A DNA stretch of 43,502 bases, filler included, from Jimgerdemannia flammicorona (Eukaryota): NCBI GenBank assembly GCA_003990765.1. It is 2 parts of 2 records of this genome, joined end to end, with 100 filler letters (N's around TTAATTAATTAA, not from the genome) between each part and the next. Parts side by side here need not be neighbours in the genome. Positions count along the whole stretch, not along the records: positions 21,807 to 43,502 come from RBNJ01001409.1; 1 more part is not named here. The stretch is one strand, 5' to 3'. Below are positions 1-42,916 of this stretch, one piece after another. The notes beneath the pieces were generated by a model. It ran no database searches. It was given only the letters and a program-made list of their open reading frames with translations, and had not been told where the DNA came from. The first letter of the stretch is position 1. Every line of letters starts with the position of its first letter. Both the position numbers and the translations under genes were made by a program.

Positions 1-11
1 AAAAAAAAAAA

Positions 12-9300: not shown

Positions 9301-9570
9301 CAAATTATCATCTTTTTGATAAATTATCATTCTTTTAGCAAATAAATATTCTTTAGCAAATTATCATTCTTTTGGCAATTATCATCCTTTTGGTAAATTA
9401 TTGTTCTTTTGGCAAATCATTATCTTTTTGACAAATCATCATCTTTTTGACAAATTATTATCCTTTTGACAAATCATCATTCTTTTGGTAAATCATTATC
9501 CTTTTGGTAAATTATTATTCTTTTAACAAATTATTATCCTTTTATAAATTATTATTTTAGTAAATTATTT
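9301..9570. repeat. ~19-bp tandem repeat, about 14 degenerate copies (consensus ~CAAATYATCATYCTTTTGR), in the hAT 5' non-coding region
   Basis: Units read directly, e.g. caaattatcatctttttga, caaatcatcatctttttga, caaattattatccttttga. Confidence 0.85.
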
Positions 9571-9699
9571 TTATATTTATTCTTATAGATTTAATTTGAA
9601 AAAAAAAAAAAAAAAAAAAAAAAAACTCCCAACTCTACTTATTATTATAGAAGACAATATAATAGATATAGATTACTCATCCTCTTAAGAAATTACTGG

Positions 9700-10093
9700 T
9701 GTAATTGATATGAAAACAGAATCTACTTCAATAAGCCATATAGATACTAGTTCAATATTACATTTTTACAAATCTGCTAGTAAGTCTTCCAAAACTTAGG
9801 TGAATTATATCAATCTTGAAGGTGATCATAGCAAGTACAATTACTGTTCAATGATAAATAATCATAGCAGCTCAACTGGAACCCTTGGATGTCATATGGA
9901 GAAAAAATATCCTAAGATGCTTACTGAGCTTGATATTAGTACTAATACTGAAATTACTAAGCCATTAAGTATTATCAGTTAATAAATAATTATATGCTAT
10001 TTTCTCAAATAGATAGTATATGATCTTCAGCCTCTTTTAATAGCAGATGATCAGGAGTTTCATCAGTTTATCAAGAGTCTCAATTTACAGTAT

Positions 10094-10095
<2 letters not shown>
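9700..10095 (+). pseudogene. hAT transposase N-terminus: BED zinc finger and DNA-binding region
   Basis: ORF 9800-9982 KYNYC...SSTGTLGCHMEKKYP is BED-like. It is followed by (W)IVYDLQPLLIADDQEFHQFIKSLNLQY at ~10010-10095. Confidence 0.8.
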
Positions 10096-10136
<41 letters not shown>

Positions 10137-11748: not shown

Positions 11749-11762
11749 ACTCATAGTATTAT

Positions 11763-12381
11763 CTCTTATCTAGTAATTATATAAAAAAATCTTATTATAG
11801 AACAGTATCTCTTATAAAATTATTATTATAGCAATCTTATAGAATATACTGAGCTCTATTATATTAACTGTAGATATTTGAAGTTTTATTATAAGTGACA
11901 GTTATCTTAGGCTTATAGCACCCTTTATTGATACTTAGTAGATTATATAGAATATTGTCTTATCTATTGAACTAATGCTAAGTCTATATATCAGTCTTCT
12001 TATCAAAGATATTATTTTGAAAATTCTAGAAAATTTTGGTATTATATATATCTAAACTTCATGTCTTAGTGATAGATAATATAGCAAATATGGTAAAAGT
12101 ATTCAGACTTATTGATGAAAAATTATCTCAGCAAATCTATTATATTTAGTGTTCAGCTTACATATTTCATCTCACTATTCAAGAAAGATTTAAGATCAAT
12201 AATATTAGTAATAAATATAATAATAATGATAATGATAATGATAATAACAATAACAATAACAATAATAATAATATTATCAATAATCTAATTGTCAAATTCT
12301 GACTTTACACCAGCACTATAAAAAGAAGTTCAAAGCTTTCATATAAGCTTTTAGAACTTTGTGAATATAATAATAAACTAT
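11763..12381 (+). pseudogene. hAT transposase catalytic core fragment
   Basis: LTVDI(W)S...SYLRLIAPFID (~11865-11935), IDNIANMVKVF (~12070-12105), CSAYIFHLTIQ (CxxH motif, ~12150-12182). An (AAT)n-like tract follows at ~12197-12283. Confidence 0.8.
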
Positions 12382-13305: not shown

Positions 13306-15854
13306 TGCAGTACTTTTGTTACTGGTCATGATATTTCTTGAGTCAGTTTTGGTGAATAGTAGTGGAGATTATTGTGCCTGAGGGCTTTCATAGTCAGAAA
13401 GTGGTCTCTTTTATATCTTGCACCAGGTAAGGTCCTTCCCACTTGGGCTCCAGTTTTCATGACCAAGAAGCTTCTACCATGTTCTGGTATACCAGAACTT
13501 TGTCTCCTATCTTAATAATCTCTAGGGGCTTATGGATCTTTTCCACATTGCTCCATTGTAGTGCCTGTGCCTTGATTATGTAATCCTCTGCCTTTTTCCT
13601 AATTTGATGTAATCTCCATATCTCTATGTCCATATGCTTCCAGACTGTATCATTATTTGCTAACAAACTTTCACTAGAACTTTCTTCTCCAAACAGCATC
13701 TCTCAGGGGGTAAAGTGAGTACTTTGTGATCTGATATCCCAGAGAGCGGATAATGCTATTGGCAGATAGTGATCCCAGTTTTCATAGTTATCACAGATCT
13801 TGGCAATAATATTCTTGAGGGTCTTATTGGTCCTTTCTGCTTGTCCATTTCCTTGGAGGTGATAGGCTGTAGTCCGAATGTACTAGATCTTGTACTTCTT
13901 GTAGAAAACCTCAAAGAGCTGGTTCATGAATTCTGTTCCTCTATCTGTAGTTACTTGTATTGGGGTCTTGAACCAGCAGATGATTTCCTTGTAGAAGAAA
14001 TTGGTGATTAACTGTGCATTGGCTTCCTTGAGGAGTCCTGCTTCTATCCACTTTGTAAAAAGATCTATGATGATAATGATATATCAGTTACCAGTCAGGA
14101 TCAAGGATAGAGGGCTGATTACATCCATTGCTATGTAGGCAAATGGTACTGGTTCTATGTGTGCTGATCTCGGGACCTGGTTTCATTGGTCTTGTTTCTA
14201 TTTCTGGCATTTGTCACAGGTTCTGACAAATTGTCTGATATCTTCTTCCATTCCAGGCTACTACATGGTTCTTCTTGCTTTGTCATATGTATTTGTTCCT
14301 CCTACATGGCCTTGTTCATATACTTCTTTCATTACTTGATTCTTCTGGTGCTTGGGGATGACTAATTGTTGTCCTTTCTTGAGTATTTCTCCACCAGTTT
14401 CGAATTGTTTCTATGTCTGATTAATAATTGTTTTTGTCCATTCTTCTAGATGCAGGGGCATCTTTCGCTGCCTCAGGTAGCTGATGATTCTGTAGTACAG
14501 CTCCCTATTCATGGTGATTTTGTGGGGGTGGGGTCCTTTGGGGTATCTGTGAGAGGGCCTCAGTATTGGCATTGGTTCTTTCAGAGTAGTGAGTGATTGT
14601 GGCATCATATGCTTGCAGCTTCATGATCCATCAGGTGTAGATTCCTTTGGGTTCACTGGTGGTGAGCAACCAGGTGAGTGCTGAGTGGTCTGTCTGGATG
14701 GTGAAGTATCTTCCCACCAGATAATAGTGGAACTTCTCTACAGCCCAGATGACTGCAAGACATTCTAGCTTGTATGACTCATAGGACTGCTCTACTTTGT
14801 GAGTACCTCAGCTGAGATAGGCTACTACATACTCAGTGCCATTCTTCTTCTGTACAAGGACAGCTCTAAGTCTCATTGTACTGGCATCTGTCTGTAGAAT
14901 AAATTCTTGTATCCAGTCAGGTCTTCTCAAGATTGGGGCCTGGGTCAGCCTGATCTTGAGTTCATCAAAGACTAGTTGCTGTTGTTGTGTCCACTGGAAC
15001 TTGACCTCTTTTCTGAACAGATCGTAGATAGGGCTGGTAATGTGGGAGAATCTTCAAATAAATCTCCTGTAATAGGATACTAGTCCCATGAAGGCTTGGG
15101 CTTCAGTGACACTGGTAGGTACTGGATATACTGCTACTGCCTTAATCTTTATGGAATCTGTGTGTGTTCCTTCGCAGTTGATGATGTGTCCAAGGTATGC
15201 AATTTCTTCTTCTCCAAATTTGCATTTCTTGGGCTTGATGTAGAGGCCATTTTTGCAAAGTCTTCTGAGGATTTCCTCAATATGTTCCAAGTACTCCTTG
15301 GCTGGCTTCAGGTGTAAGGCCAATTTGGTAGAATCCTGAGAACAGATCCAGAGTGGTGTAAAATTATGATTCATTCTTCAGCATGATAAGAATGTCATCA
15401 ATGTTGGGCAATGATTGTCTATCCTTCTCTATGACCTCATTGAGTCTTCTATAGTCTGTGCAGAGTCTTGGTGCAAATTCTCCTGATCAGCTTCCTTTCT
15501 TTGGTGTAAGGACAATAGGTGAAGACCAAGAGCTGCTGGCTTCCTTGATGATACCAGATTCCTCCATTTCCTTGATTTCAGTCTTAAGCCATTCCCTATA
15601 TGCTGGTGGAATGGGGTGGGCTTTTTGATAGATTGGTTTCGCATCTCCAGTATTGATATCATGATAGTACAAGAGTTTCTTGGTCTTGATGTCCTTGAAA
15701 TCTGTAGCCAGTATATCTTCAAATGTATGCAAGAGGTTCTGCAACTCCTTCCTAAGGGGAAAGTTCTTTCCGATTATATAAGTGTGTTTGTCTTGGCTTT
15801 CCTCCTTCTTGTGCTCCAATTCTGTAATCTTGGTTGCTGCGAGGACTTCTCTTC

Positions 15855-16265
15855 CTATAGAGCCGAATCCAGCTCTTCCTTACTGAGTTTGTCTGATGTT
15901 TGTGACTTCCTTGATTCTTGGGTTAAGGACAGGTAGGATGAGTATTTGTGCTAGCCGATCCTTTTTCTTTATTTCAAATGAGATTATTGGATTATGATTT
16001 CTAGCGAGGAGGAGGATTTCTCCTATATAGTCTGAATCAATGACTCCTCCTTCTATAGATATTTTGCTTTTCACTAAGCTGCTCCTTGTCTTGAGGATTC
16101 CGACATGATTTGGTGGGATGGTTACTTCGATTTCTGTTCCCAGCATAGTAGTGGTTTGCGGTTTGAGGATTGTGTGTATTGTGGTAGATAGGTCTATTCC
16201 TGCTGTATTCTCTAATTTGTACTATAGCAAGACTGCATCGGGGTAGATTCTTCATATCTTGACTG
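15855..16265 (-). pseudogene. dut: Trimeric dUTPase domain between protease and RT of the Gypsy pol
   Basis: All five dUTPase motifs are recognisable: AGIDL, KTRSSL, GGVIDSDYIGEI, DRLAQIL, (R>*)GRAGFGS. Confidence 0.9.
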
Positions 16266-20354: not shown

Positions 20355-20425
<71 letters not shown>

Positions 20426-21706: not shown

Positions 21707-21806
21707 NNNNNNNNNNNNNNNNNNNNNNNNNNNNNNNNNNNNNNNNNNNNTTAATTAATTAANNNNNNNNNNNNNNNNNNNNNNNNNNNNNNNNNNNNNN
21801 NNNNNN
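21707..21806. other. Artificial contig-joining linker (44 N + TTAATTAATTAA + 44 N)
   Basis: Exactly 100 bp with a six-frame stop cassette in the middle. Composition changes abruptly across it. Confidence 0.97.
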
Positions 21807-24878: not shown

Positions 24879-25341
24879 TGATAATTATGATCAGGCAACT
24901 TGTGGCGCGTAGGAAAAGGAATCCTCTGAAGAGCCAGTGGATTTGGGTTGCATTATTCGTCCTCTAATTTGAAGAATGTATGGAATCACAGAGATGATGT
25001 CGTTGTGACATTGGTTTCTACAGTATCCCGTGAAAGATCAGGTACAGAGAGACAACGACAATAGCTTATGGTGTCACAGGCGGTGTCTTCCCAAAGTCCA
25101 TTACAACGAGCAGAGGTTACGCGGAAATACGAGCCGGGGGAGGGCATCTATTTACAATTCGTCCGACTCAAATGTGAACATACGAATGCGGGATTGCATG
25201 TTGCTGACCGGACCTTCCGTGTGACTGATCCACCTTTTTTCGTGGCTGAACATCTTTGAATATTTATTTTTTGTGACCCTTTGCTAAAGTTTGAAACCTA
25301 ACACTGTTAAACTATGGCTATATTATAGTATACGTAGTAAA

Positions 25342-28300
25342 TTACATTTTATCATACTTCTTCTTACGCAAAGCCCTCGATGCGCCGGAGTGGGCCGCAT
25401 GCGCGTTTGCCGCAGATGTAGATCGTGCTGCCAGACGACTGGCCAATTTCTGCAAAATATCGTTACGGAAATTTTGAGCACCGTCTCGCAGAGAAACAGA
25501 CTCAGTCCCAATTCAATAAAACTTACCTCTAATTTCTTGGCAATGAAACAATACGTTGCGTGCGTATGGGAGACTAGCAACAACTGCGGAAAATTGAATT
25601 CTACAACCTCGCACAGCTTTTCTTTTGCTTCCGTGGGGAGGTTCAAAATCGGCCAGAATTTTGAAGGATCTTCCGCAATGTGGTAAAATAGCTGTTCATC
25701 AACTCGAATATTACCCTGGGCAACAGACAGATATCGAATCACGAACCGCTTCAGCGCTGTTGCAAAGGCCTGCGCCGGGATCTTGCCTGAGGTCTGGCTT
25801 TGAGTTGAGATTGGCAAGGACGATACGGCATGAGGTTCAACGCCAAAGTCAAGTGCATCGCTCAACTCCCTTTCCACGTTGGGGGGGAGAGCCAGCTTAT
25901 ACTTTTGCTCCAGATACTCCATCGTGACGGCGGACACTATATCTTCAACAAGTTCGTACAGTCCCACAATGTGCTTGAGTTGCAACCTTGCCAACTCAGT
26001 CGTCTGAAATTCTTTCCCGAGCAAGATCGACTGCTTGATCCACTGCTGCAAGTAGGCGATGAGCATCGTTGATGCACCGGTGGACGTTCCACTAGACGAA
26101 GCCATGAGCCGGATGTCGGACTTCGCCACGGTCCCGGTTCTTTTGATGAAAGATAGGAGCAACTCAAGGGCTGACAAAACCTCGGAAGCGCGGTTGCTCA
26201 ACAGGATGTCCGTTTGCAATGCGGTAGCGATGTCCACCGGAACTGACTCCTGCGGGACAATCGCCGCAACCTCGTTCAGAATACCAACGCAGCTGTGGAA
26301 CAGCTCGAGATGGTAAGCGAAGGGCTCCCATTCGAACTCTAAATGGGCTTTTTCAAAGACTAATTCGTGCCCAAGCTCGAGTTCGATCTTGTCCAGGTCG
26401 TAGACAAACTCGCCGCCTATCCCCAACTCCAAGTTCCGCTGGGAGTATTGAAGAATCTCGGGGTCCCATTCGTACGTAATTATTTGCGATGAACGCGCCT
26501 CCATGACGCGAACCGACCGAGCGTAGTGTATTCTGTCGTCCGCGGAGATGAGTTTCCGAGTTACTCCGCGTCGTTTTCTGGAACTGCCATGAAGACCGCT
26601 GCCGTCTTCCATAGATTTGAGAGCACGCGATCCACCAGCGTTGGTCATGGTCTGGGTCAGGAATTCGTTTTGAATGTTGACAAAATGTTCCAAGATGGCT
26701 AGGAGGTATATGGATTCATCCTTTTCTTCCATTACCGCGAATACGATTGATAGATCAAGATTCATTCTAACAATCGGCGCAGTCTCGAAACTATGGCATT
26801 GATAGCTACATATATAAAAATCAAGCTAAGGTTAGAAATATATACAGGAGCAACCACTTGCAGTGCTTTTGTACCGTACGCAAAAGTGCAGATATATAAA
26901 TTTTCAACTAACCGTGTTACGTTGGTCCTGACGGCATTCCAAGCACGGGCGAATCCATCAAAGATTAACAGCAACGCCCGCTGATCATCCTGCTGCTCGA
27001 TGAATTCACGGAAAGTCATGTTGCGTGCTGCTTGGCGTTTTAACCGATAAGCGAGTCTTGCAGAGACAACATGTACAAACTTGGTAATATCAATCAAATA
27101 TTGCAAGCTGCCCAAACGCTCGCGATGCTCGAAAAAGATCGCTAGGAACGGGTATTGCTCCTGCCGGACGGGGTCGCTCCAGTAATAGGCTCGGAAGCTG
27201 TCAAAGCTGACGTCGTCAATGCGACGCCAAAGCCGCGGGAAATGCGTATCAATGTATTCTGGCGACATCAAGGTCTCCACTTCGTCAATTTCGATCTCTA
27301 ACAACGAGGGAAGGGCTGAGGATCGAATCGTTTTGGAAAATTCTGCGGATGTGTGTTGGATGTTGCCAATCGCCAGAAGAACGCATTGATTACTAAAAGC
27401 TGCTTCCCACTGATCGCGAAGCTCAGCAGTCGCGATGGGAGCTGGCAACTGCAATGACTGTAGATTGACAACGACGGCATGAAGAACGAACGTGAGGGTT
27501 TCGTCATTGCAGTTCAAAATGGTCTTGAGCTGATTCCAATCGTTTTCAATATGGCTGAGACAGTACTGTTGCCAATCCGTCATCGTGGCCATCGATGCCG
27601 GTAGCACGGCGTGTACAAACAGGTGAAGAATTCGATATGCCGCCCGGGATAGCAAACGTACGGAGTGTCCAACATGCCCGCAAGTATTGCCATTGGTCAC
27701 CTCTTCAACAATATAGCCGGCTTGATCTAGCACGGAGACATTGGTAACGGGAGCTACATCCAATCTGCTGTTCCCGATATTGGCAACGTATCTTTCACCG
27801 CCGATTTTACTCCCACACTGTGGACAGATACTCTCTTGCTTAACTTTACCACATTCTCCGACAACATAGCAATATCCGCATTGGCAGGACCATCTGTCGA
27901 AGTCATTATAAAATAAATTACATGCTTACAATTGTTTTCACGTTGTGCTCAGCAAAGAAATGAATTGAGAGAACATACCGGCTCAATTGAGGCATGTCCG
28001 GGCCAATTAGAGCGTTCAACACGACCGATTCCGTATCCGATGGACACGCCAAGATGTATGTGGCCTTGATATCGGACGCATCGTGTAAATACATTGCCAA
28101 CGGCGATGCATCCGGCGCCATCGATGCGTGAAGGGCAATCACGTGGACGAGGACCGACTTCAACTGCAGCATCGGAATCGGCACGTCTCGAGTTACTTGC
28201 AGTAACGGATGGCTGTTTTCCAACAAGCTAAGCCCTACCCTTCTATACACGTCGCTCAAGTTGTACTGATGGTCGCTCAGTTGGGTTTGAATCCACGCGG

Positions 28301-31300
28301 CCGCTCGAATCTCGGCGTCATTCAACTCGCGGGTGGCTTGCTTGAACTGGAACTCCATGGCTAGTGCACCTAAAAACGGTAATTTGACGTTGATATCGCC
28401 AGCGGCTTTGCTGAGCAAGCCTTTCAAAGGCCCTTGAATGTTGTTGTCGGCCAGATTGGCCAAAGCGACACCAACGTCGACGTAGGACGGCAGGAATCGG
28501 AACGGATTGAAAGGCAATCGCGTTTCGTCGGTAGTGGATTTCCACGCCAAGTCGGCCAGCCATGGTAGGCGATGGTGGTGGAGGTTGCAAAACTGCTCCA
28601 CATCTCCCATACTCATCTTGGCGCGCAGGCCCTTGAGAAAATATAAGCGTAGCGATTCGACAATTGGAAGTTTCGAATTTTCACCAAGGATCAATTTGAT
28701 GCCCGAAATCACCTCAACAAGAAACTCTGGTGCTTGGTCGATAGGATTCGCGGTGCTTTCGAGCTCTTCAAATTCATCGAGGTAATGTTTCCAAAAGCCA
28801 GAAACGAACTCTTTCATGTAGGCGACAACAAGTATCGATTGTAATACATCCATCTGTTCAACCGCCAGCATAGTCTTCTTGATGTCGCCTAGCATCTCAC
28901 AAAGCTGATCGAATTCAAGCGCGAAGAATTCCTTTTGAACAACGTCACAAGTCAGAGACGCGATTCGCGAGTTCAACCCAGAAAGTGCCAAACTTTCGTT
29001 GATTGCTTGCATACGTGGGTTGGATTCCATAATTTCATCAAATCTTGATGCTGCCTCTTCAGATTCAGTGTTGTCGAAAGAGGTACTCGCTGGGAGAGAA
29101 ACAGCCAGGTCAATCACAATATCGTAACGTATTTCGTCCTCAGCGCGAAGAATTCGCAGAATGATTGGTCCCAAAAGAGGTGTAGCTGCGCTGTCCTCCG
29201 AAAATATTGACCGATAGAGTTCCACACGGGCTATCGAATCCGAAGGAAGGACATTAAGGCACCGCGAAATAAATGTACGCCACAGTTTACTTCCGCAGTC
29301 GGCATACTCGGGTGGCAACGAGTTGAGAAAAGTCAATATTCTGGAGACGAACAGGTTTGAAAAGGCGTTTTCGAATGACGTCGCCGAACTTGCTTCATTG
29401 GTGTTCAAACCTTCGGTTAGAGCGTTGCAAAATTGCGAGAGAGGGAATGCAAACGGTATCACCAGCATTGATACGAAATCGTTGCAAATGCGTAATAGTT
29501 GGAGCGTCAGGGCTGGGCGAGACGACGGAATCCCGGCACAGAATGACAGTAGGGTAGTCGTATTTTGACACCACCGGTTGATATCTAAGTTGTCATTCGA
29601 GGTCAACAGCGCTCGCAACATCTGGAAGCAAAACGTGTCCACCAACAGCTCCTCAAATGAATCATCGGTCGATGCTGCCGTTATGACTAGGTCCTCCAAC
29701 GTCGCAAAGAGGTCATCCAATGGTACTATCTTCCCGCATGAAGCGATAAGGTCGAGTTCGGAGAGGATTATTGCGCTGTGCTTCCACCACTCAGTATGGA
29801 GGCGGACTGGATCTGAAACGTACTGCTTGATTCGGCCTTTGAGAATGAGTTTGAGGATGCGCTCGTGCTGTAAACCAATATCTGTGCGTTTTTCAGGAAT
29901 GTTTCTGGCAATAAAGTCTTCAAAGTATAACTTCGAGTATTTATGGAAAATCTCGGACTGTAGATGCCGGATGTTATTCCTAACATGCTCAGCAAATTGC
30001 TCGTAATATTCTTCCACAATACTCCTGTAAAGCTCCCCAGTTTCTGGATTCAATTTTGCCTCATCTTCCTTTAGAGCATCAGATTCCTCTTGGTAAAGCT
30101 GGCGGTAGCGATCGATCTGATTTGCGAAATGATTGCTGAACGGAAATCGGAGCCGAATAAGATGTGCTGATGACATCGAGTATGCATCTGGTCCTGGCTC
30201 AGCCAAATCGACAATTTGGACAATTTTCCTGTCTTTCAAAATTTCCTCCCAAAACTGCGCCAAATCATCGTTATTCCTTGTTGACAGTTCGTCAGAATTG
30301 CGGACAACAACGTCATCGTCGAAATACTGTTCATTGAGATCTAGGTATGTCGTGATGGTCGACAATCGTTCCAATGAACAAATGATCTTCGCAACGGGAA
30401 TACGAACAACATGACGAACATGTCGGTCAAGAGCAGTTGGGAAAGACGACGAGAGGAGCAACAGTCGCTTGCTCCTAGCTATTTTTGACTGCCAATCTCC
30501 GTGCTCATACTCGTCCAGCCATTCGTCTACGCGCTGTTGGATTTCGCGAATCAATCCAACACTGTCCGGAAGCTTCTGCATGAGCATTTTCATATGCTTC
30601 AACGCCTCTGCCGACGGGGGATATTTCATAGACACCAAGCACCAAGAGAGTTCTTGCCGGAATATCTCATCAAACGGATAGACTGTATTTATCAATTCGC
30701 GGACACTTCTTTGCAAAAGTTGGGAAAGCGGTCGAGGTTGCTGTTCCAAAGTTTCAATGACGACTTGCTGCCAGCCACAGAGAAAGTCGAAATTGACGGA
30801 ATAAGAACTGATTCCCTTGATGTCACGATGAAGATGGAAAATCATGACAACATGTTTTGGCGAGGAAGTGCCCACTTTGGCCAGATGATCTCGTCGTGCT
30901 TGCTCGATAACCCACTTCGCTAGCCTTGTGCTTCCTTCATTGTCGTTTCGCCCGTCGCATTGCATGATCAACATCTCATCCCCAGAATCGTCAGACCAGA
31001 ACGACTTCACCCTGGACACCAACTGCGCCTCTGATTTGAAGGTAGATAATTTGTCTAACTGGCATCGTAGCATGCCATGTAGGCAAGCATCGATGTCTAT
31101 GTTGATGTTTGAGAAGGTCTTGATCATAATCAATTGGTGGTCGCTTGCGGTGGAAGCAGAATATTTTGAAATAAGTGCGGCAATATGTGATTGGAGATCG
31201 TCGTGCCGCTGCTGATTGAAGAACACATCCTTCCAGTGAGCGACTTCAGACGAATCGATCCTCGCGAGTAATGAGTCTCCGGACCGAACCATCGCATCGG

Positions 31301-34300
31301 AGCACGCGTTACTGATCAAGTCTGCTTTGCAGTGTTCGATGAGAGTCGAGCGATCGTGCATTTCACTGCTGTGATAGATAACCAGGCTTGCCAGAGTTAT
31401 TTGTCTGTCAAATCCAACAAACATATCCTCCACAGTAAAGCTCCCCATTGTGCTTTCCTGTCGGTTTTCGCTATCCAATCCATCACTATCGAGTTGCGAA
31501 GAGTTCTCAGCAGGTGTCGATATACGGTTTGTCCATTCCGTTAGGTCGTCAATGACTACCTTTAGAGATGGCTCTAAGGAAACCTCGAAGGAGACGCGTT
31601 GCTTTTCGAATCGATTGAGCAAAGGCGGGTCCGCGTATTGCACGTCGTTTTCATCCAAGACCAGGATCGAACGGAAACGTGGGTGGACAAAACACATAGG
31701 GTTGGCGTATTCCCCGAGAGCAACACGGCAATAGTATTTGGGATCCTTCTTCGATCCTACGGCCATGTAGTTCTGGTTCCATAAGTCATACAGACTCCCT
31801 AGAGTATAAGGGGTGAATTGAACATTTACGCTGTTATATAAACAGAAAAAAAAAAAAGACATACATGTCACATACCATACAGTATTTCTAAGTTCGTCAA
31901 TATCAAAGGGCGCCCACTCTCTACGCACATCAGAATCTTATTGAGGACACTGTACGAATAATCGTTAGTCATTTTATCGTCCGGGAGCTGGCTGCCGTAA
32001 ATAATCAAAGGGTCCAGTCCTTGTTTCCTCATGACGTGTTCAAGGATCCCAATGACCGAACCACTGTTGCCAATCACCATAAGATGCCGACCTTCGACGG
32101 TATCCTCCAAGTTTGCACTTATAAGATCCTTAATCGGTGGCGCCTGGTACACAATCCGATCACCGGGCATGTTGTACACCACTGGTGAAAAGAAACTCCA
32201 GAGCAATTTGTATTCATCCAATCCCCCAAAATTCCTAGCGAGGGCAAAGTGCAAGTTGCCCGGGTTGAGGCTGTTTTTCTTGCTCAAGCTCTTGACAAAG
32301 GCATAGTAGTCACGTAGGCCATGGAAATTTTTATATCTGTAAATGATAACAGATTAACAATATTATCAGCAATGTGAATCCCGAATTTGACAAGGAATGA
32401 CATTCTAACCCTTGTACTCACTTCTGCGCCTTCTCGTATTCAGTGTACGCTTGAGCAATTGTTTCAAGACGTGATTTAGGAATGTGATCACTGCTGGCCA
32501 TCAGATGTGTCGCGGTGTCAACCAAGTCTTCTAAGCGAAGTTCGGGTCTCTGCACCAATAACGCCCGCGAAGTTTTAGAATGGTCCAGCCTCCAATTCGA
32601 TATCCCAATCACTGAAATGTCCGGGCCTTCCGAAGGGTAGCTTGGTTCCAATAGGTAGTGTAAAACCTTCAGTGGGTTGAAAGGCGATCCCTGTTGACAT
32701 AAAATAAAAAATTAGGTTCTATTTCGTAAGTCGAAGAACTTTCAATAACCCCGATTTTTTTCGAAATGCTAAACGCACCTCCGCAAGGCCAATTTCATCC
32801 AGAAGGACAACGGTCCGAATCGGAAACGATTCTGAATTCATCTCTTGGTATTTGCGAGCCGTTTCGAAAACCTTTGTGATACCTTCGGATGTCGAGGATG
32901 AGCTTCCCTGATGTGGTATAATGTATACCTAGAAGCAATTGTGCTGGTCATTAGTTACGAAATTGCATACTAGAAAGTTTTAGAATACTAAGCGTTACCT
33001 GGGGTAAGGTTCGGAAGTATGGGTCATTAGAGTCTGATCCTTTGAGATTTTGGTGAACCAGGCGAATGGCCAGAGACTTTGAGGATCCTGGGGCTCCGAC
33101 CAAGAAAAGAGGAATTCGCGTTAAGATGCACACAATCATTGCCAAGACATTTTCCAGCAGGGCTTCGTTTGAAGCAGTAGATGGCGGAATTATCATTCTG
33201 TCCACGTAATCCAATTCCTCCTTTTGCAAGATATCTTTGAATTTTTCCTCGGTAACATCCCAGTTATGTTGTTGTAGAAGCTTGCTGATTCTTTGGCGGT
33301 ACAGTTGTCTCAATTGCTGATCGTACAAGCGGAACTGATAGGACAATCCCAAAGCGAGTACCATTGCCTTAACACGGTTGCATTTCGCCTTTGATTTCTC
33401 GATATTTCCCCATCTCTTAACGAAACTGTCCAGAAAGAAGTCGGATAACGCAACGGCTCGTTTGACGTCTCGAAGGCTAACGCTATAAGGTCCATCCACC
33501 TCGCGCATAAATTGTTGAGATTCGAACAGAAGCACCGCAAACAGGGCGCCTAATTCTTTTGTTTTCGTCATTATTTTGATATATGCTTGCTCATCTTGAG
33601 GGAGCAATGATCCGAAATCCCATACATAGTCAAGAGCGATCTCGGGGAGAGGTAGAACTTGGTAGACAAGCGGACTTTTCTCTTCATATCGCTTATTCTG
33701 AACTTGGAGTCCAGCAGTTCCGGCATTCCCGATTCCGTCCGAGCGGAGCCGATAGGGATTACAGGCAGCAAAGAACTACAATAGCCAAAAGTGAATAATT
33801 AATGTATATACGCCCATGCCAATCACTCAATATCAACATGTCCCAAACGCTTTTAAGAACAAATTTCTGCTTACCTTCATGCTTCTGCTCACTGGTCGGC
33901 CCAAAAACATTCTATGGCAGATTATATCAACCACAAACGATAAATGGTTACAAGTGTTTACTTCGTCCCAGAAAACCCACACCGTTCCTTCCGTTGCTTT
34001 TTCTTCAGCTTTTTGCATGAATTGGACGATTTTGTTCTCGGTTATCCCGGCATGCAAATTCATAACCTCGAAATGAGACACCTCGACAACGCGCGACAGA
34101 AAGTGAATTAGACTTGTCTACAAATGATGACAATGAAAAGGTAATAGTGAGGCGACCGATTCGGAGAATTTTCGAGGAGAGCGGTGAGGAAACCGCACGT
34201 TGAAAGGGGCCTCGGCATTCCTCTCTCCTATGTAATGAAAATAGAGAAATCAAACAAACCTTTCCACATCCTGCCTCACCGCAAAGAATTACTGGCACGT

Positions 34301-37300
34301 TGGCTCTCACGCGCAGAAGCATGATTGCCATTTTTAGCAAATTGTCGGCACTGAGTGCATACCTTGGATAATTCAACTGACCGAGACTTGATCGCGCAAG
34401 AGCTTCCAGTTTGGAAAGGAGCTTTTCTGGTGTCAACATGTCGTAATCCTCCAACGCCCAAGCTGGAGCCCCAACCCTGCCGCGATGTGATTGGCTTCGC
34501 AATAGCTCTTCGACGTTTTTGGGTACAAGGGCCCGATTGCGGTATAACGCGCTGATCGTATCAGGATACTGAGACTGAAAGAATACTAGCAAATGGTTGG
34601 AATCAACCCATCCGGTGAGACGCAGATTGTTACCAGTGTTTTTTTGTCCAGGTGCGAGATTGCTTGAGGACCCGGCGCTGGAATTTACGGAAGAGAGAGC
34701 TAATTGCGAAAGTTGCACTGTGCTTGTCGCCACCGAACGTGTCGCGAAATCCTTAGAAACGTCGATTAGGGCAGCCACCAGGGTTGATCGAATATCCTTC
34801 CCTTCTTCGACCATTAAGTTCAAGTTTTTAACCTCAAAGAAGGTACTCTTTGACAATCTAGCCAATTGTTCTGCAAGAACGCGAAGGAAAATATCCAGGA
34901 ATCTGAACGAAGAAATTTCGGCACGATTCTGGAAGAAATACTTTTCCAGCAATTGCCGGCAACGGCTATCCTGTTGCAAAACCAGCTTGTTTTCTGGAAA
35001 CCGAACGTCTTTGCGGTCAAGTAGCTTGCGATCTAATAGGTCCAGATAGCTGCATACGATTTGGATGGCACTGTGGGGTTCCTTGCTAACTATCAATCTG
35101 TTGATATCCCAGTGTATATGCGTTGCAGCTAGAGCATTACAAATCCGGAGCGAATGAGCAAGTTCGTGTCCAGGTGTGGACGCGATCTCAATGAATACAT
35201 TCTTTGTTGGCAGCAACGCAATTGTTTCTTTAGAGCTCATGATTCCCAGAACCAACAATTCAAAAAGGAGCATGTTTAGTTCTGCTGGATTGCGGACGCA
35301 TCCGATATCGATATGCAAGCATTCAAAAGTCCTCAATCGGCATTCCTTCAAGAGGCGAACAAGACTTGCACGTAGGATGTCGTCAGAGAGATGAAGGTTG
35401 CGAGGTGTCTTTCTTTGACCAAAGCTAGCCTCCTTTATATATTCGGTTTTTGACTGACCTGCGAGATCAGATGTAACAACGAGGACATGAGGACATAGTT
35501 TTGTCATAATCGTCTTCATGGATTTAGCCGAAAGCCCGTCGATATTGTGAACATAATCGGCAAATTGATCGAGAATATGCATTCCGCCACGTTCGCGATA
35601 GCATACCAATGCCAGAAGATGCTGAGATTTCCTTTCTGTTCTCGTGGGGGCTGGTAAATTCGAGATTGGTTCAACACCCATAGGTGTTCGTCCACTATTG
35701 CAAGTCGTCGACGATGTCAATGTCCGAATACGCTCGACTAGTCTGTGCTGAAGATCGAAACCCAGTTCCTCCAAATTCGCCATGCAGAACAACACATTAT
35801 TATGGCCGCGAATCGGAGCGCGGAAGCATCTCAACAGAAATAAGTCTACTTCCTCCCACGTTGTTGATGAGCGGCACACATACAGCTGATATGGTTGGAG
35901 ACTAGTGCCATGGGTAGCATACAATTCGAGAATGACATTCGGGACACGCGTCTTGTCGTTACATGCTGCAATAAACAATTGTCCCGGTATTACACATCCA
36001 GCAAGGTCGGTATTCTTGTGTTCTAAAATTCCGCTTAAATTATTGGTAGTATGTTGTTGGGTCAAGTTGCCAAAGATGGCGTCAAGCTGTTCTCCAACAG
36101 CGAGCAGCATGCGCAAGTGACAGTCTTCGCTTGGTAATCCGTAATTCGGCAACCAAACTGATTTTCTTTCGCCATTGCAAATCATCGATAGCTTTTGAAG
36201 ATATTTTTCACCAGAGGAGACAAATTTAAGGAGCATTTCACCTTCGCGCAGAGCATCCTCAGAGCTCTCCTTTTCTCCGAAGAAAAGATCGTACAACTGG
36301 AGGATCTGGCGTCCCCGGAAAAACGTCAAATAATAGCTCTGCGCATGAGCAGCTGATACGATTTCTTGCCACTTGCGAAAACCTTCGGTTAACCGTTGCA
36401 GCAGCAAATCCATCTCGGCAATTGAAGTAACGGAACACCAGAACTCGGCAGCATACGTGAAGTGACCAAGATCGATCAACTTGCTGGCAACAATAATCAC
36501 TTCGTTGGCGGTATCGACTAACTTGACGAATGCCATCATTTTCTCTCGCAAGATATTTGATGCGCTTGTAGCTTTCACTGTCGAAGGTTCTGATCCAGAC
36601 GTACTTGTGACATTCTCATCTATATCCATGGTCATTGCAGCTTTGCCGGTCGAACCGGCAATTAAGAGAGCTCGCCCACGAAGATCATAAAGATCGTTTA
36701 AATTGCAAATGGTTCTCCCGCCTTGTCTGTTTTTGTAGGACATAGAAGTAGCGCAGGCCGATCCGTCTTTGGTGCGTTCGAAAATAAACACACCAATGTC
36801 GACAGCGTTGATGATCCGCTCCTTTGTGACCTCTCCTCGGTTTGTGATGTTGGCATACATGTTCTGAAGCGAGGTTTTGTTGTGGTTACAGAGATGCAAC
36901 TTTGTCGCCAATTGCGGGTTCTTTTCTGTTGCTTGATGAATGTAATTAAGAAGTTGATTGATGGCGGCGTTGCAGGTTTCATCGTCGTCGTCCCCTCCTA
37001 TTTTCTCAAAGTATTCCGCGAGCGGGACGAAGAAGCGCTTGACTTCTATCAGAGAAGAGACGGTGTCCTCCTGTAGAAGCTGCTGATCAGACTGATCCTC
37101 AACCGCATTGATTAGATTTCTGAAGTCTTCAGTCAACACGGTCTTTAGAAATCCAATCAGTTCTCCTGATAGTGCCAATTCTTCGATCAAGCTCCAGCCA
37201 TGAAATGATAGTTTGCTGAAATGCTGGAGCTGCTCCAATTTCTGCAACTCTTTCTCTAAATTCTCAACTTTCTGTTCATCATCGGAAAGCAGGTCGATGT

Positions 37301-40300
37301 AAGCGTTGACCCAAGTGCGACGTTTGAAAATGTTGTTAGAGTGCGAAAGTTCCGCTTCGAGCAACATGGCTGTTTTTACGCACACTCTGAAGCTTGTTCG
37401 TTTTGTCTGATATACGCACAATACTACGGAGCATGTTCAACACCGCCTGTTGGTGAGATGTTCTCGTCTCGGATGAGGGCACTCCCGCACACAGTATCTC
37501 TAGCTCTGCCTCGATACGATCCTCGCGAACGTTGCACCACATGGATAGAACCTCAGCTTTGGTGAGCCTCTTCCATTTTAAAGGTGTCACATATGGTCCC
37601 GAAGACTGACGAAAGGTGTCCAAAGCTGCGGAAATTTTTCCCGCAACGTCATTTACTGTGAGTGTATGTGCTGTCCTAGTATTGATGCCAATCAATTCGG
37701 TCAAGTGTGGCGCTATCACAGTTTTGCCTTTGCCTTTGTTAGTATTACTGGCTGAAGCATCAAGAAAATTCGATATCGTCCCCAGAAACACATTCATGAA
37801 CGTGTGCGATTCCACAAATGCTGCGACCTCCTGTGAAATTTGCAAAAGGTTCTGGAAGTCATCCCATTGCGTTTCCAAGCGTATGTCGGCCAACGTCAAG
37901 CACGAGAATCCCTCTCTCATGTTTTTCAAGCGATCTAAATGGTCTTCAGCGTCCCCAACAATCCAGATTTCGGCCTCCGATGTCGCCTCGCCAAAAGATG
38001 CCGCCGTTTTCAAAGGTTTCGCTGTCACCACTGTATCAGAAGCTGTGTCGTGTGCTGCATTACTTTTTCCCATCAACGAAGATCGCGTCGATCGCCTGAA
38101 TAGCTCCCAGGCTGAAGGAGCTTCCATACAAAAACGGGTGATAATTCGTTCAAGTAGCACCCAACGCCGTATATGAGTGTCGGGCAAGGCGTGCGCCTCC
38201 GCAAGTATCTCGCTTGTCACAGCAGAATTTTTGTCACCATCGTCGCTCGTGATCATCCTGGATATACTACACTCCAAAAGTTGAAGTAGCTTAGCATCAG
38301 GGATACTCTGGATGGTTTCGCGAAGCAGTTGCATCGGAATAGACCCATCAATGATCATTTTGTGAAGGACGGCAAGGCATTCACGGGCTGCTTGAAGTCG
38401 CGGATGGTTATGAATACGAGAGACAGATCCAGTCGCTCGGAAAAGCAAGATCCATAATTCGGCGTTATTGAGCAACACCTCGAACATACGCTTGTATTCG
38501 CTGCTGCCGATGGTTTTTGGAGACTCGGAATCTTTGGCTACGGACCAGGTTGATTTGGATGTCGGGTTATGTTGGATGATAGGTGCGCTTTGGTCCAAAA
38601 GATAACATACAACATCTTCGGACAGCCTAATTTATGGAACGAAAAACAAATTAATATCTTTTACAGTTATCGCAGTCGAAATTGGCCTAAATTGATGCTT
38701 ACTGATGTTGAACATGTAATTTCTGCATGTTGCTCGAACACACTTGCTGAAACCTTGTCAAAAGTCGGTTGTTCCACTCGCGGTAAGCAGTTACTGGCGA
38801 ATTTTCCGTAATTCTAGCTGGAACTGGCCCTGTTTCATTAAATCCACCAGTCGTATCCACATTAATGTTGGCTGAAGTCCCATCCACACCGGTAATTTTC
38901 CCCAACATAGCCATCTGATACGCCCCTGGAACGCATTCTGGCTGCAAATGTCCAATTTTAGTCGTTGCAACACACAGAAGATCCTCTGACATAGACTTGA
39001 CACGCATTTGCGCAATGAGAAGGAGATCATTCTGGACGAGGATGGCTTTGATATGGTGTGCATCGACAAGAGGTTGCAAGGCGGTAAGTATTCGGGACAG
39101 CCACAGAAAGCTCCAAAAAACTTCATTGTCTGACGACCCATGTCCGTGGCAAATGTTGAAATTGTCGGTCTTGCTACTTTCACTGCCGTAGGTATCAACA
39201 ACATTTTTATCAATTGACTTGGCGAAAGTGTTGTTGAGCGGCGGTGATATGCGCGTTGGAACTGCTGGTGTTTGAGTCAGATCGCTTGAAAGAAGTTTCT
39301 TAAACCACGGAACACAGTACTGAAGCAGGTCTTGAAATCCCTGTGCTAGCGTTGACCATTGAGGCTCCGACATTGATGGCGAGCCGTGTCGATTTTGCAT
39401 GAGTATTTTTACTTCCAAGAAATGACGAAGCAATTCCGGGAAAGCGGCAAGTAAGACGAAGTCATGAACTTGATGAATATGCTTCATTGCTTGAGTAATA
39501 TAGATCCACGGATCTGACTTGCTATCAGTCTTAGGCGCTGGATCCTGCAACGGGTCGGTACCTGTACGAGCGAGGGCCACCTTTTTCGTGTGCCACCATA
39601 TAAAAATATAGTTAGATAGTGTATTCATTGCAACTTTTTTTTATACTATATATATATATAACTTACCGGAAATAACTCTTCGTCGATAATCAACTGCACG
39701 ACTTCGTCAACAAGCGGCACCGTCCATCGCATATTTTGATTCTCAAGAATATTCAGCACACGCTTGCGGAACACGGAAGGCCCAAGGAATGTTCGTAAAT
39801 TGTCCGGGAGGCTCTCCAAAGTAGGCCTGAGCGAGAGGATTTCGTAGCGATCGATTATAATACGCACTCTCGCTTCGAAGTGTGTATACAAGCTATCTTG
39901 GTGGCCTTCGTTGGTACCGAATGTCGCATGGATCTTTAGGTAATTTTCATACAGGTACAAAAGTGACTCCATGGTGGAAGCACAGGAGATGAGGATCTGC
40001 GCCAGCGACATGATAACACTCGTCAGTGAAAGTCATTTGATTGCGCGTGAAATTATTCAAATATGTAATAACAACAATCTCTCACCTTTATAAGTTGCTT
40101 ATATTCATTTTGAAATTTGGCGGGCATTGTCTCCAGGGACTTCAGCGTCGGCACAATACAGTAATTCAACCTCTCCAGAAAAACCGGATGCTCACACTTT
40201 TTGTACACGCATGACTCCAGTGTATCTAACAACCGTTGTAGCAGCTCGTCGTGAATCGTATGTCCAACACCATCACCGCCAATGACCCGGATACTTGCAT

Positions 40301-41822
40301 CGGATGTAATTGTGGTCAATCGGAAGGCGAACATCCACTCTAATTGGTTTAGTTTCTCTGTCCTATAAAACTCGCTGTTGTGACGGATAAGGGTGGCAAT
40401 TCCATCTGCGTAATTTCTCCAAAGATCCTTGGGTATTTGCGATTGAAGATCCGTAAAACGTGAGGTGCGAATGTCATCGCTAACTTGATGGACGAGAATA
40501 GACAACAGCGAAGTCGACGGGAATTCCGCTGGCAGAGTTACAGTCGACTTTGTTGTCGATTGCGCATAACGTCCCAGAATGATGCATAGGAAGACGAATG
40601 GAGGTATATTGTCGAACGAGATCGAGGTGGGTGACTTTGTTTTGGCTGACCGGTTTTTGGTGCCGGAGTCGTTATCCTTCAGATTACAGATTTCGAATGC
40701 AAGAGCGCGACTGAGATCTACTTTTGACATGACCGTTTGGACGAAGTCGGGCTGAGCTTGACGTAAGATGCTGAAGGCCGTAAGCTTGTAATCAAATGTA
40801 GTATCGGGGTCCATAACTATGTCACGGATGAAGGTACATCTTGACAACTCGTTCCGGCGTTTCTCAGAAGAGCCCAATTTTGGTTTCCACATGTCGAATT
40901 GGCATTCGCAGAAGGTCATTTCTCGATTGTCGTTAGGATCTTCGCCTTCAAATTCTACGCGAGATTGGGATTGTACGACATACTTGTACTGTATTTGACA
41001 GGATCCATTACCGCCCTCCAGATTGTTGACGAGTTTGATGCGCACTGTATCGGATGCCCAGTGCCTGGATCGGGGGCTGACTTGGTGAAGGCGTACTTTG
41101 ATGTCAGATTTCCAAGAGCCTAGTTCCTCTACGTTCCCAACGACGCCGATTATCGGAGTGCCTCGAATACTGTCTGCGGGTATGTGTACGTGGAAGACAG
41201 TCGTAATGGAGGGTACCTTTTCGTCGGCATAAACGTCATTTTGGCCTGCATTTTCAAGTCCGTCGGATGACGAAGTTCCAAGTAAGCGGCCCAGGCCTCC
41301 GACGAACGACTTCGCAAGGTCCTTCAAATTGGGTGCGGCTGACTTGGAAATGGTATGGCCCGAGTTGTCCTCTTTTACACTGTTGCTGTGATGACTTGGA
41401 AGCTGTTTGATCGAGATTGTACCGCGCTGTTGGTATTGATCCGGCGGCGTAAGAGCCGTATGAGTGTAAGACGCGGTGTTGGAGTCGTCTTTTCCCATAC
41501 CAGCGCTGGGAGATTGTTCGACGAGGACAGACTGTTGGTCCAACCAGGTTGTTTCGGATGTCCTGGGGCCATCGGAAATGTCACCACCATCGTTGTCCAA
41601 ATTTGTGCTGCGCGGTTGGTTTTGGTCTTGGGGAGCGGGAGCCGTATTAGTAGAAGCCGTGCTTTCGGAGTTCTCTTCTCCCATTGCAAGATACTCTTCG
41701 ATATCTGCATATTGGTCGTCTAACAAGACTGGGTCGGGCGTTCTTGTCGCATCGGAAACATCCCTTTCAGCTTGTTTCGAATCGTCGTTGTCGCCACCGC
41801 CATTGTGTTTTATTTCAGTCAT
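25342..41822 (-). CDS. RNF213: RNF213 (mysterin)-like giant AAA+ ATPase / RZ-finger E3 ubiquitin ligase, 14 exons, ~5,095 aa
   Basis: Hand-built exons: 41822-40086, 39996-39667, 39580-38703, 38626-37384, 37271-34260, 34117-33875, 33775-32999, 32928-32779, 32690-32422, 32336-31876, 31798-27979, 27893-26913, 26805-25527, 25449-25342. All GT-AG with matching phases; total 15,288 nt, divisible by 3. RNF213 motifs: DNLLKM, GEAGCGKT, VFWDEVNT, AACNPYR, VSLRDVKR, NEALLENV, GAPGSSKS, LLDEIGLAE, PLKVLH, IGISNWRLD, GLRDYY, RNFGG, YGSLYDLWNQNY, PLLNRFEKQ, RZ finger. Confidence 0.93.
27788..27893 (-). other. RZ finger (RNF213/ZNFX1 type), variant
   Basis: Start of exon 12, missed by the ORF track: WSCQCGYCYVVGECGKVKQESICPQCGSKIGGERY. 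Confidence 0.88.
31580..36000 (-). other. Dynein-like AAA+ core
   Basis: Degenerate P-loop SDLAGQSKT (~35445-35472). Active-type pairs GEAGCGK|T with VFWDE (34280-33960), and GAPGSSKS (~33075-33098) with LLDE (~32795-32806). Confidence 0.9.
40915..41207 (-). other. CBM20-like carbohydrate-binding domain of the RNF213-like protein
   Basis: VFHVHIP...VVGNVEELGSWK...HW...IQYKYVV...EFEG...DNR matches the CBM20 pattern (G..xLGxW, W, YKY, E, NR). Confidence 0.8.
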
Positions 41823-42916
41823 ACTGGCTGTCTAGGCTTGTTCACTTTGCTATAATGTGAAAGTTATTAGATGGCCGCAGTACATTTACATTAATAACGG
41901 AAGTAAGAGTAATTGACGACTATGTAGCAAGCTATCATCAATTTTTTGAAGGGATCTTAGAAGTGTTGTGGAATAAGATGTGTACGATTCTCAGGTACAT
42001 ACCAATATCTGTTATTTGCTTCACACTGGGTCACTCTTGCCGTTGAAATGTGATTACTTTGATGCCGTGGGTTTACAATCTTTTACTCGAAAGACGTGGT
42101 ATGTTCAACGAACAAAAGATGCGTTCACAAGTTGCCAAATGTCGTTCGACAGTAAATTGAAACTCAATTTGGGAAATTGCGTTTTTCGGATTTTCCTTTT
42201 TTGGATGCCAAGCCCTAACAAAGATCGCTTATTCACTTGTCTATATGCAGCAACTGCTATGGTCATGGGGTGTGCATAGAAAGTATAGAAAGTCCTCCAA
42301 GTTCTTGTCCTCGTCAAGTTGAGGATCGGCGTAAGGGAAAGTCGCCATTTCGATATTGGACAATGTGAACGGGTAATGCTGTCACCCAGTAGCAGGCCAA
42401 TACCCTGGCTTCCATAGTGATGTTGGACGAGTTTCCCACGGAAAGGTTTGTTTTAACGGGAAACGCCGGTTTGGCGTATTACGGGGAACCGGAAATCCAG
42501 AAGTAGGATGCACGGCAGTCATAAACAGGATTGTTGGATTTGGCCTCTCGAATTTAGCTATTGGAGCAAACTCAAATACATTCAAAGTGTCCTTCGCGTG
42601 AAATGTATGTGAGATGTGTTATGCTAAATCGGGTGTGCTGACGTAAGCTGGGTCGATGGGTTTGGTGAATATGGAAGCATGCGCTTCCCAGGCCCGCCAT
42701 TCGCGTAAAGTGAAGGGGCCGCACATTTATTGTTCCTCATCCAAGAGGGAAGGGCGGGATGGGTTGCGTAAACTGATTGCAGGAACTAACTAAGTATACA
42801 GGCGTAGTCTACGCGCTTGATTGTTAAGATGCGACGCGTACTCAGTCGCTAAGGGGGATATTACATATAATGCATACTGAAACGTTGCTAAGCTATTTGC
42901 CGCTGGCATCTTGCCG

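Follow-up and report, generated by a model that had tools for sequence, protein, structure and literature searches.

Among the closest described systems to the gene reported here is RNF213 (mysterin), on which work has been almost wholly mammalian and has concerned moyamoya disease and the ubiquitin coats formed on bacteria. The mammalian protein is known from several solved structures (6tax, 7oik, 8s24, 9g08, 9jw1/9jwg). According to the accessible part of PMC8567218, its RING is dispensable for the ubiquitylation of lipopolysaccharide (LPS) and its RZ finger is required, a Cys of the RZ finger taking ubiquitin from UBCH7; the portion of bioRxiv 10.1101/2025.10.14.682297 at hand assigns zinc binding to the first His of the RZ finger and the role of general base to the second, human H4537. 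A literature search found no paper on RNF213-type genes of mycorrhizal or Mucoromycota fungi, and the terms 'RNF213' and 'mycorrhiza' met only in the available text of a general autophagy review. Here we analyse a stretch of 43,502 nt (the window), made of two joined records of Jimgerdemannia flammicorona GCA_003990765.1. Its part RBNJ01001409.1 (21,807-43,502) carries what is probably an expressed and spliced gene of an Endogonales-like Mucoromycota fungus, encoding a giant RNF213-family protein with a mechanism proposed from that of mammalian RNF213. By itself, the locus amounts to a well-supported annotation, not to the discovery of a new kind of system.

Gene model and splicing

Between 25342 and 41822, the record consists of a series of long stop-free blocks, every one of them on the minus strand. 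In the open block at the 5' end, the first ATG, at 41822, was taken as the start; the stop codon lies at 25342-25344. With splice sites taken as frame-keeping GT..AG pairs, picked by best fit to full-length homologues, the model comprises 14 exons and 13 introns (46-142 nt) and has a coding sequence of 15,303 nt, which specifies 5,100 residues and contains no internal stop. Twelve introns measure 70-142 nt, and a putative intron 4 is shorter, at 46 nt. The C-terminal end of the predicted protein, ...KKKYDKM*, fits the K[FY]D[AN]M terminus of Glomeromycotina homologues.

Transcript data came from the assembled contigs of two public runs with near-identical sequence, aligned to 25200-42000. Eight of the 13 predicted introns are absent from these contigs at precisely the predicted bases, and all eight skipped stretches read CT..AC on the plus strand, which is GT..AG on the strand of the gene. 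Since predicted GT..AG introns are skipped exactly, the contigs must be derived from RNA, and transcription and splicing of the 3' two-thirds of the gene are supported by the contig joints. For introns 1, 2, 3 and 10, no joint was found in the contigs of either run. A contig with a loose end of 19 letters at 31897, made of the last 13 bases of exon 11 and the first 6 of exon 10, is placed uncleanly and gives a hint only of the intron 10 junction. About 40 listed single-base changes across 25333-41227 and an in-frame gap of 3 bases at 28715 separate the contigs from the window, so that the source of the runs is a close, non-identical strain or haplotype.

Exon blocks 4 and 5 are in different frames, the shift falling within 23 nt, at a run of five A (A5) that is A4 in the transcript contig. 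Dropping one A turns the upstream frame into the downstream one, which fuses exons 4 and 5 and gives a protein of 5,115 residues. This A4 reading without an intron also aligns better to the closest homologues (270 versus 252 bits for P0110, and 212 versus 197 bits for P0001). The frame can alternatively be restored by the 46-nt intron 4, which we set aside on three grounds: it is unskipped in the transcript contig, it is shorter than all other introns, and the A4 reading aligns better. It is probably not a real intron, and the A5 run is either a homopolymer error or a genuine frameshift. The sequence-only reading, made before any database search, had described an apparently intact gene of about 5,100 residues with the RNF213 layout. 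Its ends, size and layout hold, and a spliced transcript is supported, with 8 of 13 introns removed in the run contigs; the word intact needs the caveat of the frame break at the A5 run.

Assignment to the RNF213 family and the ATPase ring

In the PDB, a single exon matched RNF213 and nothing else, at the Walker A of the first active module, and neither a single-sequence phmmer search with exon 11 nor exons 6 and 8 alone gave any match. A family profile and a fold comparison were needed. The profile combined exon 11 with 11 full-length fungal homologues; it matched nine distinct PDB sequences, all nine of them RNF213 (best E 1.5e-200), over three collinear stretches corresponding to human residues ~1265-1945, 2392-3396 and 4498-5096. 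Neither midasin nor dynein was among its PDB matches at E<=0.01, and the profile gave no sequence match to human RNF213 ~3396-4498.

The first and second active modules of the AAA+ ring both have intact Walker A and B motifs. Exon 7 aligns with human RNF213 at E 2e-22, and the Lys of its GAPGSSKS motif falls on chain residue 2409, that is human K2775. Model residues 2380-2900, the spliced AAA3-4 region, are 33% identical to Latimeria RNF213 (E 8e-75) and retain Walker A and Walker B in each of the two modules, together with the AACNPYR sensor motif. In the second module, the distance from the Walker A Lys to Walker B is 71 residues, compared with 70 in human. The dynein-like AAA+ core matches the human landmark residues K2426/E2488 and K2775/E2845, as named in the accessible part of PMC11549300, and two of its modules are predicted to be catalytically competent. 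At the two ends of the protein, the N-terminal arm contains a CBM20 domain, an RNF213-family hallmark, with a Pfam score above the gathering cut-off and a mean identity of 39% to 14 fungal homologues, and a C-terminal domain follows the RZ finger.

A helical E3 module without a RING

No sequence match to RNF213 covers the segment that leads from the ring to the RZ finger, so its structure was modelled. An AlphaFold model of the 1,200 residues preceding the RZ finger, computed from a 16-row alignment, has a predicted local distance difference test (pLDDT) value of 74.7 and a predicted template-modelling score (pTM) of 0.56. In a Foldseek search of the PDB, RNF213 occupies ranks 1-8, with E from 8.4e-16 to 1.8e-12, about 1,300 aligned columns and template-modelling (TM) scores of 0.38-0.43. 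Rank 9 is Avs4 at E 4.7e-3, and dynein appears only at E 1.7e-2 or worse. With VIA-align, model residues 476-1173 superpose on the human E3 ubiquitin ligase module of 9jwg (3706-4472) with a Z of 13.5 over 578 residues and a root-mean-square deviation (rmsd) of 11.5, while dynein matches are confined to a single AAA unit at Z ~8. A Z near 13 may be common among helical folds, and the gap in Foldseek E values is therefore the stronger argument. Between ring and RZ finger, the protein is thus modelled with a helical E3 module, superposed at the rmsd of 11.5. The proposal of the sequence-only reading that the gene belongs with RNF213 and not with midasin or dynein is borne out by the profile search, which matched RNF213 alone, and by the position of dynein in the Foldseek list, at E>=1.7e-2.

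The only two CxxC motifs of the protein both lie within the RZ finger, and the E3 module (model residues 3400-4311) contains 14 Cys and 21 His with no Cys cluster, from which we conclude that a RING is absent. The RING inside the E3 module that is typical of vertebrate-type RNF213 was accordingly not found in the protein, as judged by Cys clustering; dedicated RING detectors are weak here, Pfam being blind even to the RING of Latimeria RNF213 and a regular expression hitting 0 of 138 long proteins, Latimeria included.

A variant RZ finger

The RZ finger aligns with mouse RNF213 4450-4735 at E 1e-6, and the nucleophile Cys of its GECG motif and its CxxC fall on mouse C4462, C4471 and C4474. The nucleophile of the family is thus in place. 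The vertebrate-type site (C-x3-H ... CxxC plus a general-base His) is not found in the window copy, which has Tyr at both RNF213 His positions (human H4509 and H4537) and an extra Cys at +2 that creates a CxC. All 34 fungal RZ fingers compared have CxCG where RNF213 has CPxGH, and the general-base position is His in 21 of the 34 and Tyr in 13, the window copy among the latter. His-type and Tyr-type fingers are intermixed across the clades of the tree (P0002-P0080, P0139 and the window). The CxCG type also occurs in a dinoflagellate and in further relatives without names.

With Tyr at the general-base position, the chemistry described for LPS would not be expected to carry over simply to the window copy. 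The substitution makes an amine acceptor, such as a protein lysine, more likely than a sugar or lipid hydroxyl for this copy, or else points to a weakened RZ activity. The RZ finger exists in a second natural form, CxCG with His or Tyr at the base position, and variants of this kind offer a way to test what residues govern hydroxyl versus amine ubiquitylation.

Relatives and phylogeny

A query with exon 5, covering proteins of 2,002-5,000 residues (orthologues above 5,000 residues lie outside this range), matched 109 proteins. The closest with an organism name is the single Endogone sp. entry, at 58% identity; 90 others belong to 12 genera of Glomeromycotina (31-46% identity), and the remaining 18 comprise oyster, rotifer, Latimeria RNF213 and sequences without names. 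Gigaspora margarita contributes 11 entries, Gigaspora rosea 6 and Glomus cerebriforme 6, counts that may include fragments or second assemblies. An exhaustive HMMER search over cluster representatives returned 652 matches at E<=1e-3, of which 210 reach E<=1e-30; the top one (65% identity) carries no name. Names were sought for 20 representatives and obtained for 12, among them a second Endogone paralogue, Branchiostoma, Mercenaria, Argopecten, Asterias, Lineus, Polarella, Pelomyxa, Paratrimastix, Ceratopteris and Cymbomonas, so that relatives span amphioxus, molluscs, starfish, nemertean, fern, green alga, dinoflagellate and protists.

The exon 7 query covered proteins of 455-2,000 residues and, among the best 120 of its 306 matches, adds Paraglomus, Funneliformis and Basidiobolus. 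Two fragments of Basidiobolus meristosporus (P0295, P0307) are 43-46% identical to exon 7; as this fungus is of Zoopagomycota type, the fungal members of the family extend beyond Mucoromycota. No Dikarya, Mucorales or Mortierella name occurs among the named exon 5 matches or the listed exon 7 matches, which, coming from shared-word and length-bounded searches, is weak evidence.

A FastTree phylogeny of the AAA core (64 rows, 1,335 columns, local support, midpoint root, many rows unnamed) places all 22 fungal rows in one clade with 100% support. Within it, the basal position belongs to the second Endogone paralogue, and the 20 Glomeromycotina rows together form the sister group of the window (99%). 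The sister of the fungal clade is a row without a name (81%), invertebrate rows stand in neighbouring clades, and the fungal clade as a whole groups with invertebrate, plant and protist rows. Latimeria RNF213 and two rows without names form a separate clade (100%), and no grouping of the window gene with vertebrate RNF213 was seen in the midpoint-rooted tree. By this placement, the window gene is not an orthologue of vertebrate RNF213 and stands in a separate clade spanning eukaryotes. The topology fits an old eukaryotic gene that was kept by few fungal lineages and multiplied in Glomeromycotina after their split from the lineage of the window. Among fungi, what appears to be a RING-less lineage with a CxCG-type RZ finger is seen in Endogonales, Glomeromycotina and Basidiobolus. 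An uncharacterised Branchiostoma protein lies near the fungal clade, with 38% identity to exon 5, and a separate Branchiostoma entry named RNF213 carries a RING Pfam domain (P0125, P0320); this hints at two old paralogous RNF213 lineages in animals.

Two further statements of the sequence-only reading concern this distribution. A fungal gene of Mucoromycota type agrees with the Endogone best named match at 58% and with the position inside the 22-row fungal clade. That typical yeasts and moulds lack the gene is compatible with the named matches listed, none of which is from Dikarya, on the same weak evidence.

Proposed mechanism and alternative explanations

From the N to the C terminus, the layout is a disordered N-terminus, CBM20, a helical arm and stalk, the AAA+ ring, the RING-less E3 module, the RZ finger and the C-terminal domain. 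By analogy with mammalian RNF213, ATP binding or hydrolysis in the two active modules would set the conformation of the protein, a ubiquitin-charged conjugating enzyme (E2) would hand ubiquitin to the Cys of the RZ GECG motif as a thioester, and ubiquitin would then be passed to a substrate selected with the help of the N-terminal arm and CBM20. We infer, on that model, an ATP-regulated transfer of ubiquitin from E2 to Cys to substrate.

Several points weigh against the view of the locus as an expressed gene for an active RNF213-family ligase. Read letter by letter, the window has a frame break at the A5 run. Neither run is recorded as RNA and both are only presumed to be, contig depth is low (1-8), and one contig has an indel at 30474, a one-base gap within a frame that is open in the window, so that these low-depth contigs are not error-free. 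No sense-strand joints fall in the 5' third of the gene, where contigs with antisense splicing overlap it. The tree depends on FastTree with local support and a midpoint root, and includes many unnamed rows. The RZ finger has neither His of the RNF213/ZNFX1 type, zinc binding through the extra Cys is presumed, and the ligase activity of the protein is a prediction.

If the extra A were a true frameshift, the window copy would be a decaying gene or pseudogene, with the protein cut after ~1,380 residues. The frame does change at the A5 run in the window as written, and the sole rescue is a 46-nt intron that the transcript contig retains. However, all remaining exons (~15 kb) are open with no stops, the contig, from a ~99%-identical source, has A4 and an open frame, the exons downstream of the run are transcribed and correctly spliced, and homopolymer length is a frequent error in genome assemblies; we consider decay unlikely. 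An origin of the contig from an animal or protist contaminant is extremely improbable: relatives are indeed present in many animals and protists, but the best named match is Endogone sp., the tree nests the gene in the fungal clade (100%) as sister to Glomeromycotina (99%), and the introns are short (70-142 nt). An expressed fungal RNF213-family gene is thus the reading we retain, and the remaining alternatives concern what its product does. It could be a housekeeping or metabolic ligase-ATPase acting on the storage bodies of the fungus itself, on glycogen through CBM20 or on lipid droplets. Mammalian RNF213/mysterin has been reported at lipid droplets, and mycorrhizal fungi hold glycogen and lipid stores in bulk. 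CBM20 is a starch/glycogen-binding type of domain and, at 39% identity, among the better conserved N-terminal parts, and an old cellular function would account for a spread across eukaryotes, plants and algae included, more readily than an antibacterial function specific to one lineage. Against a storage role, heavy paralogue multiplication and a fast-diverging N-terminal arm are atypical of a housekeeping enzyme, and the gene has been lost from most fungi and is therefore dispensable; it seems to us rather doubtful.

The protein might instead, in line with the sequence-only reading, be a cell-autonomous immune ligase. It would coat or tag bacteria inside the cell (endohyphal or endosymbiotic), or further kinds of invader, much as the mammalian protein acts on LPS, and the paralogue expansion in mycorrhizal fungi would be an immune repertoire. 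Such a role would suit the RNF213 architecture, CBM20 included, this domain being proposed as a possible receptor domain of RNF213 in the available part of PMC11549300. It would also suit the finding that LPS ubiquitylation requires the RZ finger and can dispense with the RING (PMC8567218, in the part cited above), and the many paralogues per Glomeromycotina species (for example 11 in Gigaspora margarita and 6 in Glomus cerebriforme, fragments possibly included). The N-terminal arm, the most divergent structured part, diverges fastest across homologues (23% identity versus 52% in the AAA core), and selection in primate RNF213 is likewise concentrated there, according to the same part of PMC11549300. 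Nowhere, however, do the data at hand connect the gene to bacteria; the window copy has Tyr at the general-base position used for hydroxyl activation, and a fern, a green alga and free-living protists have members of the family too. The commonest endobacteria of Endogonales and Glomeromycotina are wall-less, Mollicutes-related and without LPS. Mortierella and Rhizopus also carry endobacteria, of Burkholderia type in Mortierella and Mucorales, and yet Mortierella and Mucorales names are absent among the named matches listed, which is weak evidence. On balance, an antibacterial role is quite unlikely. A wider proposal, to which we give an equally low probability, is that the RNF213-like genes of Endogonales and Glomeromycotina make up a germline-encoded and diversified repertoire for surveillance in coenocytic mycorrhizal fungi. 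The variable CBM20 and N-terminal arm would bind glycans of endobacteria, of the compartments of mycoviruses or of foreign nuclei, the ATPase ring would power coat formation and the RZ finger would tag the target, with His-type and Tyr-type paralogues dividing hydroxyl (sugar/lipid) and amine (protein) acceptors between them. If true, fungi would possess a counterpart of mammalian RNF213 immunity, derived from an ancestor shared across eukaryotes.

Feature coordinates and the rest of the window

Table 1. Features of the RNF213-like gene, listed from its 5' to its 3' end (positions in the window).
Feature	Positions	Strand	Evidence or remark
RNF213-like gene, whole coding span	25342..41822	-	14 exons, 5,100 residues as modelled
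Exon 1: low-complexity N-terminus, CBM20, start of N-terminal arm	40086..41822	-	collinear with Endogone P0001 from its residue 115
CBM20, starch-binding type	40929..41150	-	PF00686, E 5e-7, 29.9 bits (cut-off 23.3)
Intron 1, 89 nt, GTGAGA..CAG	39997..40085	-	predicted only; one contig unspliced across the donor
Intron 2, 137 nt, clear donor GTAAGT	39530..39666	-	predicted; acceptor uncertain: 39529, 39544 or 39580
Intron 3, 76 nt, GTAAGC..TTAG	38627..38702	-	predicted only; best homology score, 824 versus 688
Exons 4+5: N-terminal arm, stalk, first AAA units, Walker A of first module	34260..38626	-	profile 1042-1657 versus human ~1265-1945
A5 run, reading-frame change	37373..37377	-	A4 in transcript contig (one base missing at 37373)
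Alternative intron 4, 46 nt, GTATAT..ACAG	37370..37415	-	frame-restoring; kept (unskipped) in transcript contig
Walker A GEAGCGK(T)	34260..34280	-	aligns with human AAA3, K2426
Intron 5, 142 nt	34118..34259	-	confirmed, joint 34117/34260
Walker B WVFWDEVNT	33953..33979	-	aligns with human E2488 (profile 'lffde' versus human LFFDE)
Intron 6, 99 nt	33776..33874	-	confirmed, joint 33775/33875
Walker A GAPGSSKS	33074..33097	-	aligns with human AAA4, K2775
Intron 7, 70 nt	32929..32998	-	confirmed, joint 32925/32996, cut +3
Walker B VVLLDEIGLAE, second active module	32779..32811	-	Latimeria RNF213 has VVLDEIGLAE at the aligned place
Intron 8, 88 nt	32691..32778	-	confirmed, joint 32689/32778, cut +1
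Intron 9, 85 nt	32337..32421	-	confirmed, joint 32336/32422
Intron 10, 77 nt, GTATGT..CTAG	31799..31875	-	predicted; junction peptide LEILYG/SLYDLWNQ fits family consensus
Further AAA+ alpha/beta unit, later ring	30738..31205	-	model residues 126-281 versus ORC, p97 and dynein AAA, Z 8-9.7
E3 module, all-helical, RING-less	28062..30155	-	matches 9jwg_A, human RNF213 3706-4472
Intron 11, 85 nt	27894..27978	-	confirmed, joint 27893/27979
RZ finger, SCQCGYCYVVGECGKVKQESICPQCGSKIGGERY	27764..27892	-	PF20173 ZnF_RZ-type, E 1.8e-13, 50.3 bits (cut-off 27); start of exon 12
Post-RZ region and C-terminal domain	25342..27763	-	profile 3917-4568 versus human ~4498-5096
Intron 12, 107 nt	26806..26912	-	confirmed in both runs, joint 26805/26913
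Intron 13, 77 nt	25450..25526	-	confirmed in both runs, joint 25449/25527

On the plus strand, contigs of one run have GT..AG joints at 38549-38666, 38783-38910 and 40915-41021, of opposite sense to the gene and inside its exons 1, 3 and 4, which suggests a spliced natural antisense transcript across the 5' third. Two plus-strand open reading frames within the gene (34579-35049 and 37610-38176) lie outside these three stretches, and neither they nor an open reading frame at the end of the window gave a Pfam match.

The flanks of the gene within the window are gene-poor and repeat-rich. Positions 1-12000 have a GC skew of -0.27 to -0.56 (C-rich plus strand) and a GC content of 30-41%, contain no long open reading frame with a family match, and look like repeat-rich non-coding DNA. 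An imperfect tandem array at 10467-11724, with the 9-base unit CTATCTTGC in ~142 copies and 67% matches, yields artificial open frames in all three plus-strand frames. At 15054-16221, on the minus strand, a dUTPase domain (E 6.9e-22) and a reverse-transcriptase fragment (E 8.7e-6) lie next to each other, each in a short frame of its own; by these matches they are the remains of a broken retroelement. A run of 66 T occupies 20356-20421 in an AT-rich stretch that precedes the 3' end of the gene along the window, and the two 44-N runs, 12 bases apart, at 21707-21806 are the filler between the two joined records.

Comparison with known systems

ZNFX1, an SF1 helicase that carries NFX1 zinc fingers, has the RZ finger (PF20173) in common with the window protein and, unlike it, is devoid of a dynein-like ring; the PDB profile and RZ searches returned no ZNFX1 chain. 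Further close systems are the Glomeromycotina paralogues from Rhizophagus, Gigaspora and Glomus, in which the family is already annotated automatically as RZ-type or 'e3 ubiquitin-protein ligase' proteins, and two hypothetical proteins of Endogone sp. FLAS-F59071. These homologues are collinear over the full length, are 37-58% identical in exon 5, and share the CxCG RZ finger and the K[FY]D[AN]M end, with CBM20 in some. The window gene differs from the Glomeromycotina paralogues in being sister to all 20 sampled rows and not one of them, and it belongs to the Tyr subtype of the RZ finger. With its multiplication in arbuscular-mycorrhizal fungi, the family is a candidate for study in fungi that harbour intracellular bacteria.

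RNF213 is the sole PDB family matched by the sequence profile and the top family by fold (Foldseek ranks 1-8). Like it, the window protein has a CBM20 in the N-terminal arm, a stalk, a dynein-like AAA ring, a helical E3 module, an RZ finger and a C-terminal domain in the same order, with two active modules in which the Walker A Lys corresponds to K2426 and to K2775. Unlike RNF213, it has no RING, and its RZ finger carries CxCG in place of CPxGH and Tyr in place of the general-base His; identity is only ~33% in AAA3-4 (to Latimeria), and the two fall in separate clades of the tree. The full machine of CBM20, ring, E3 module and RZ finger is old and present across eukaryotes, with the RING absent in the lineage of the window.

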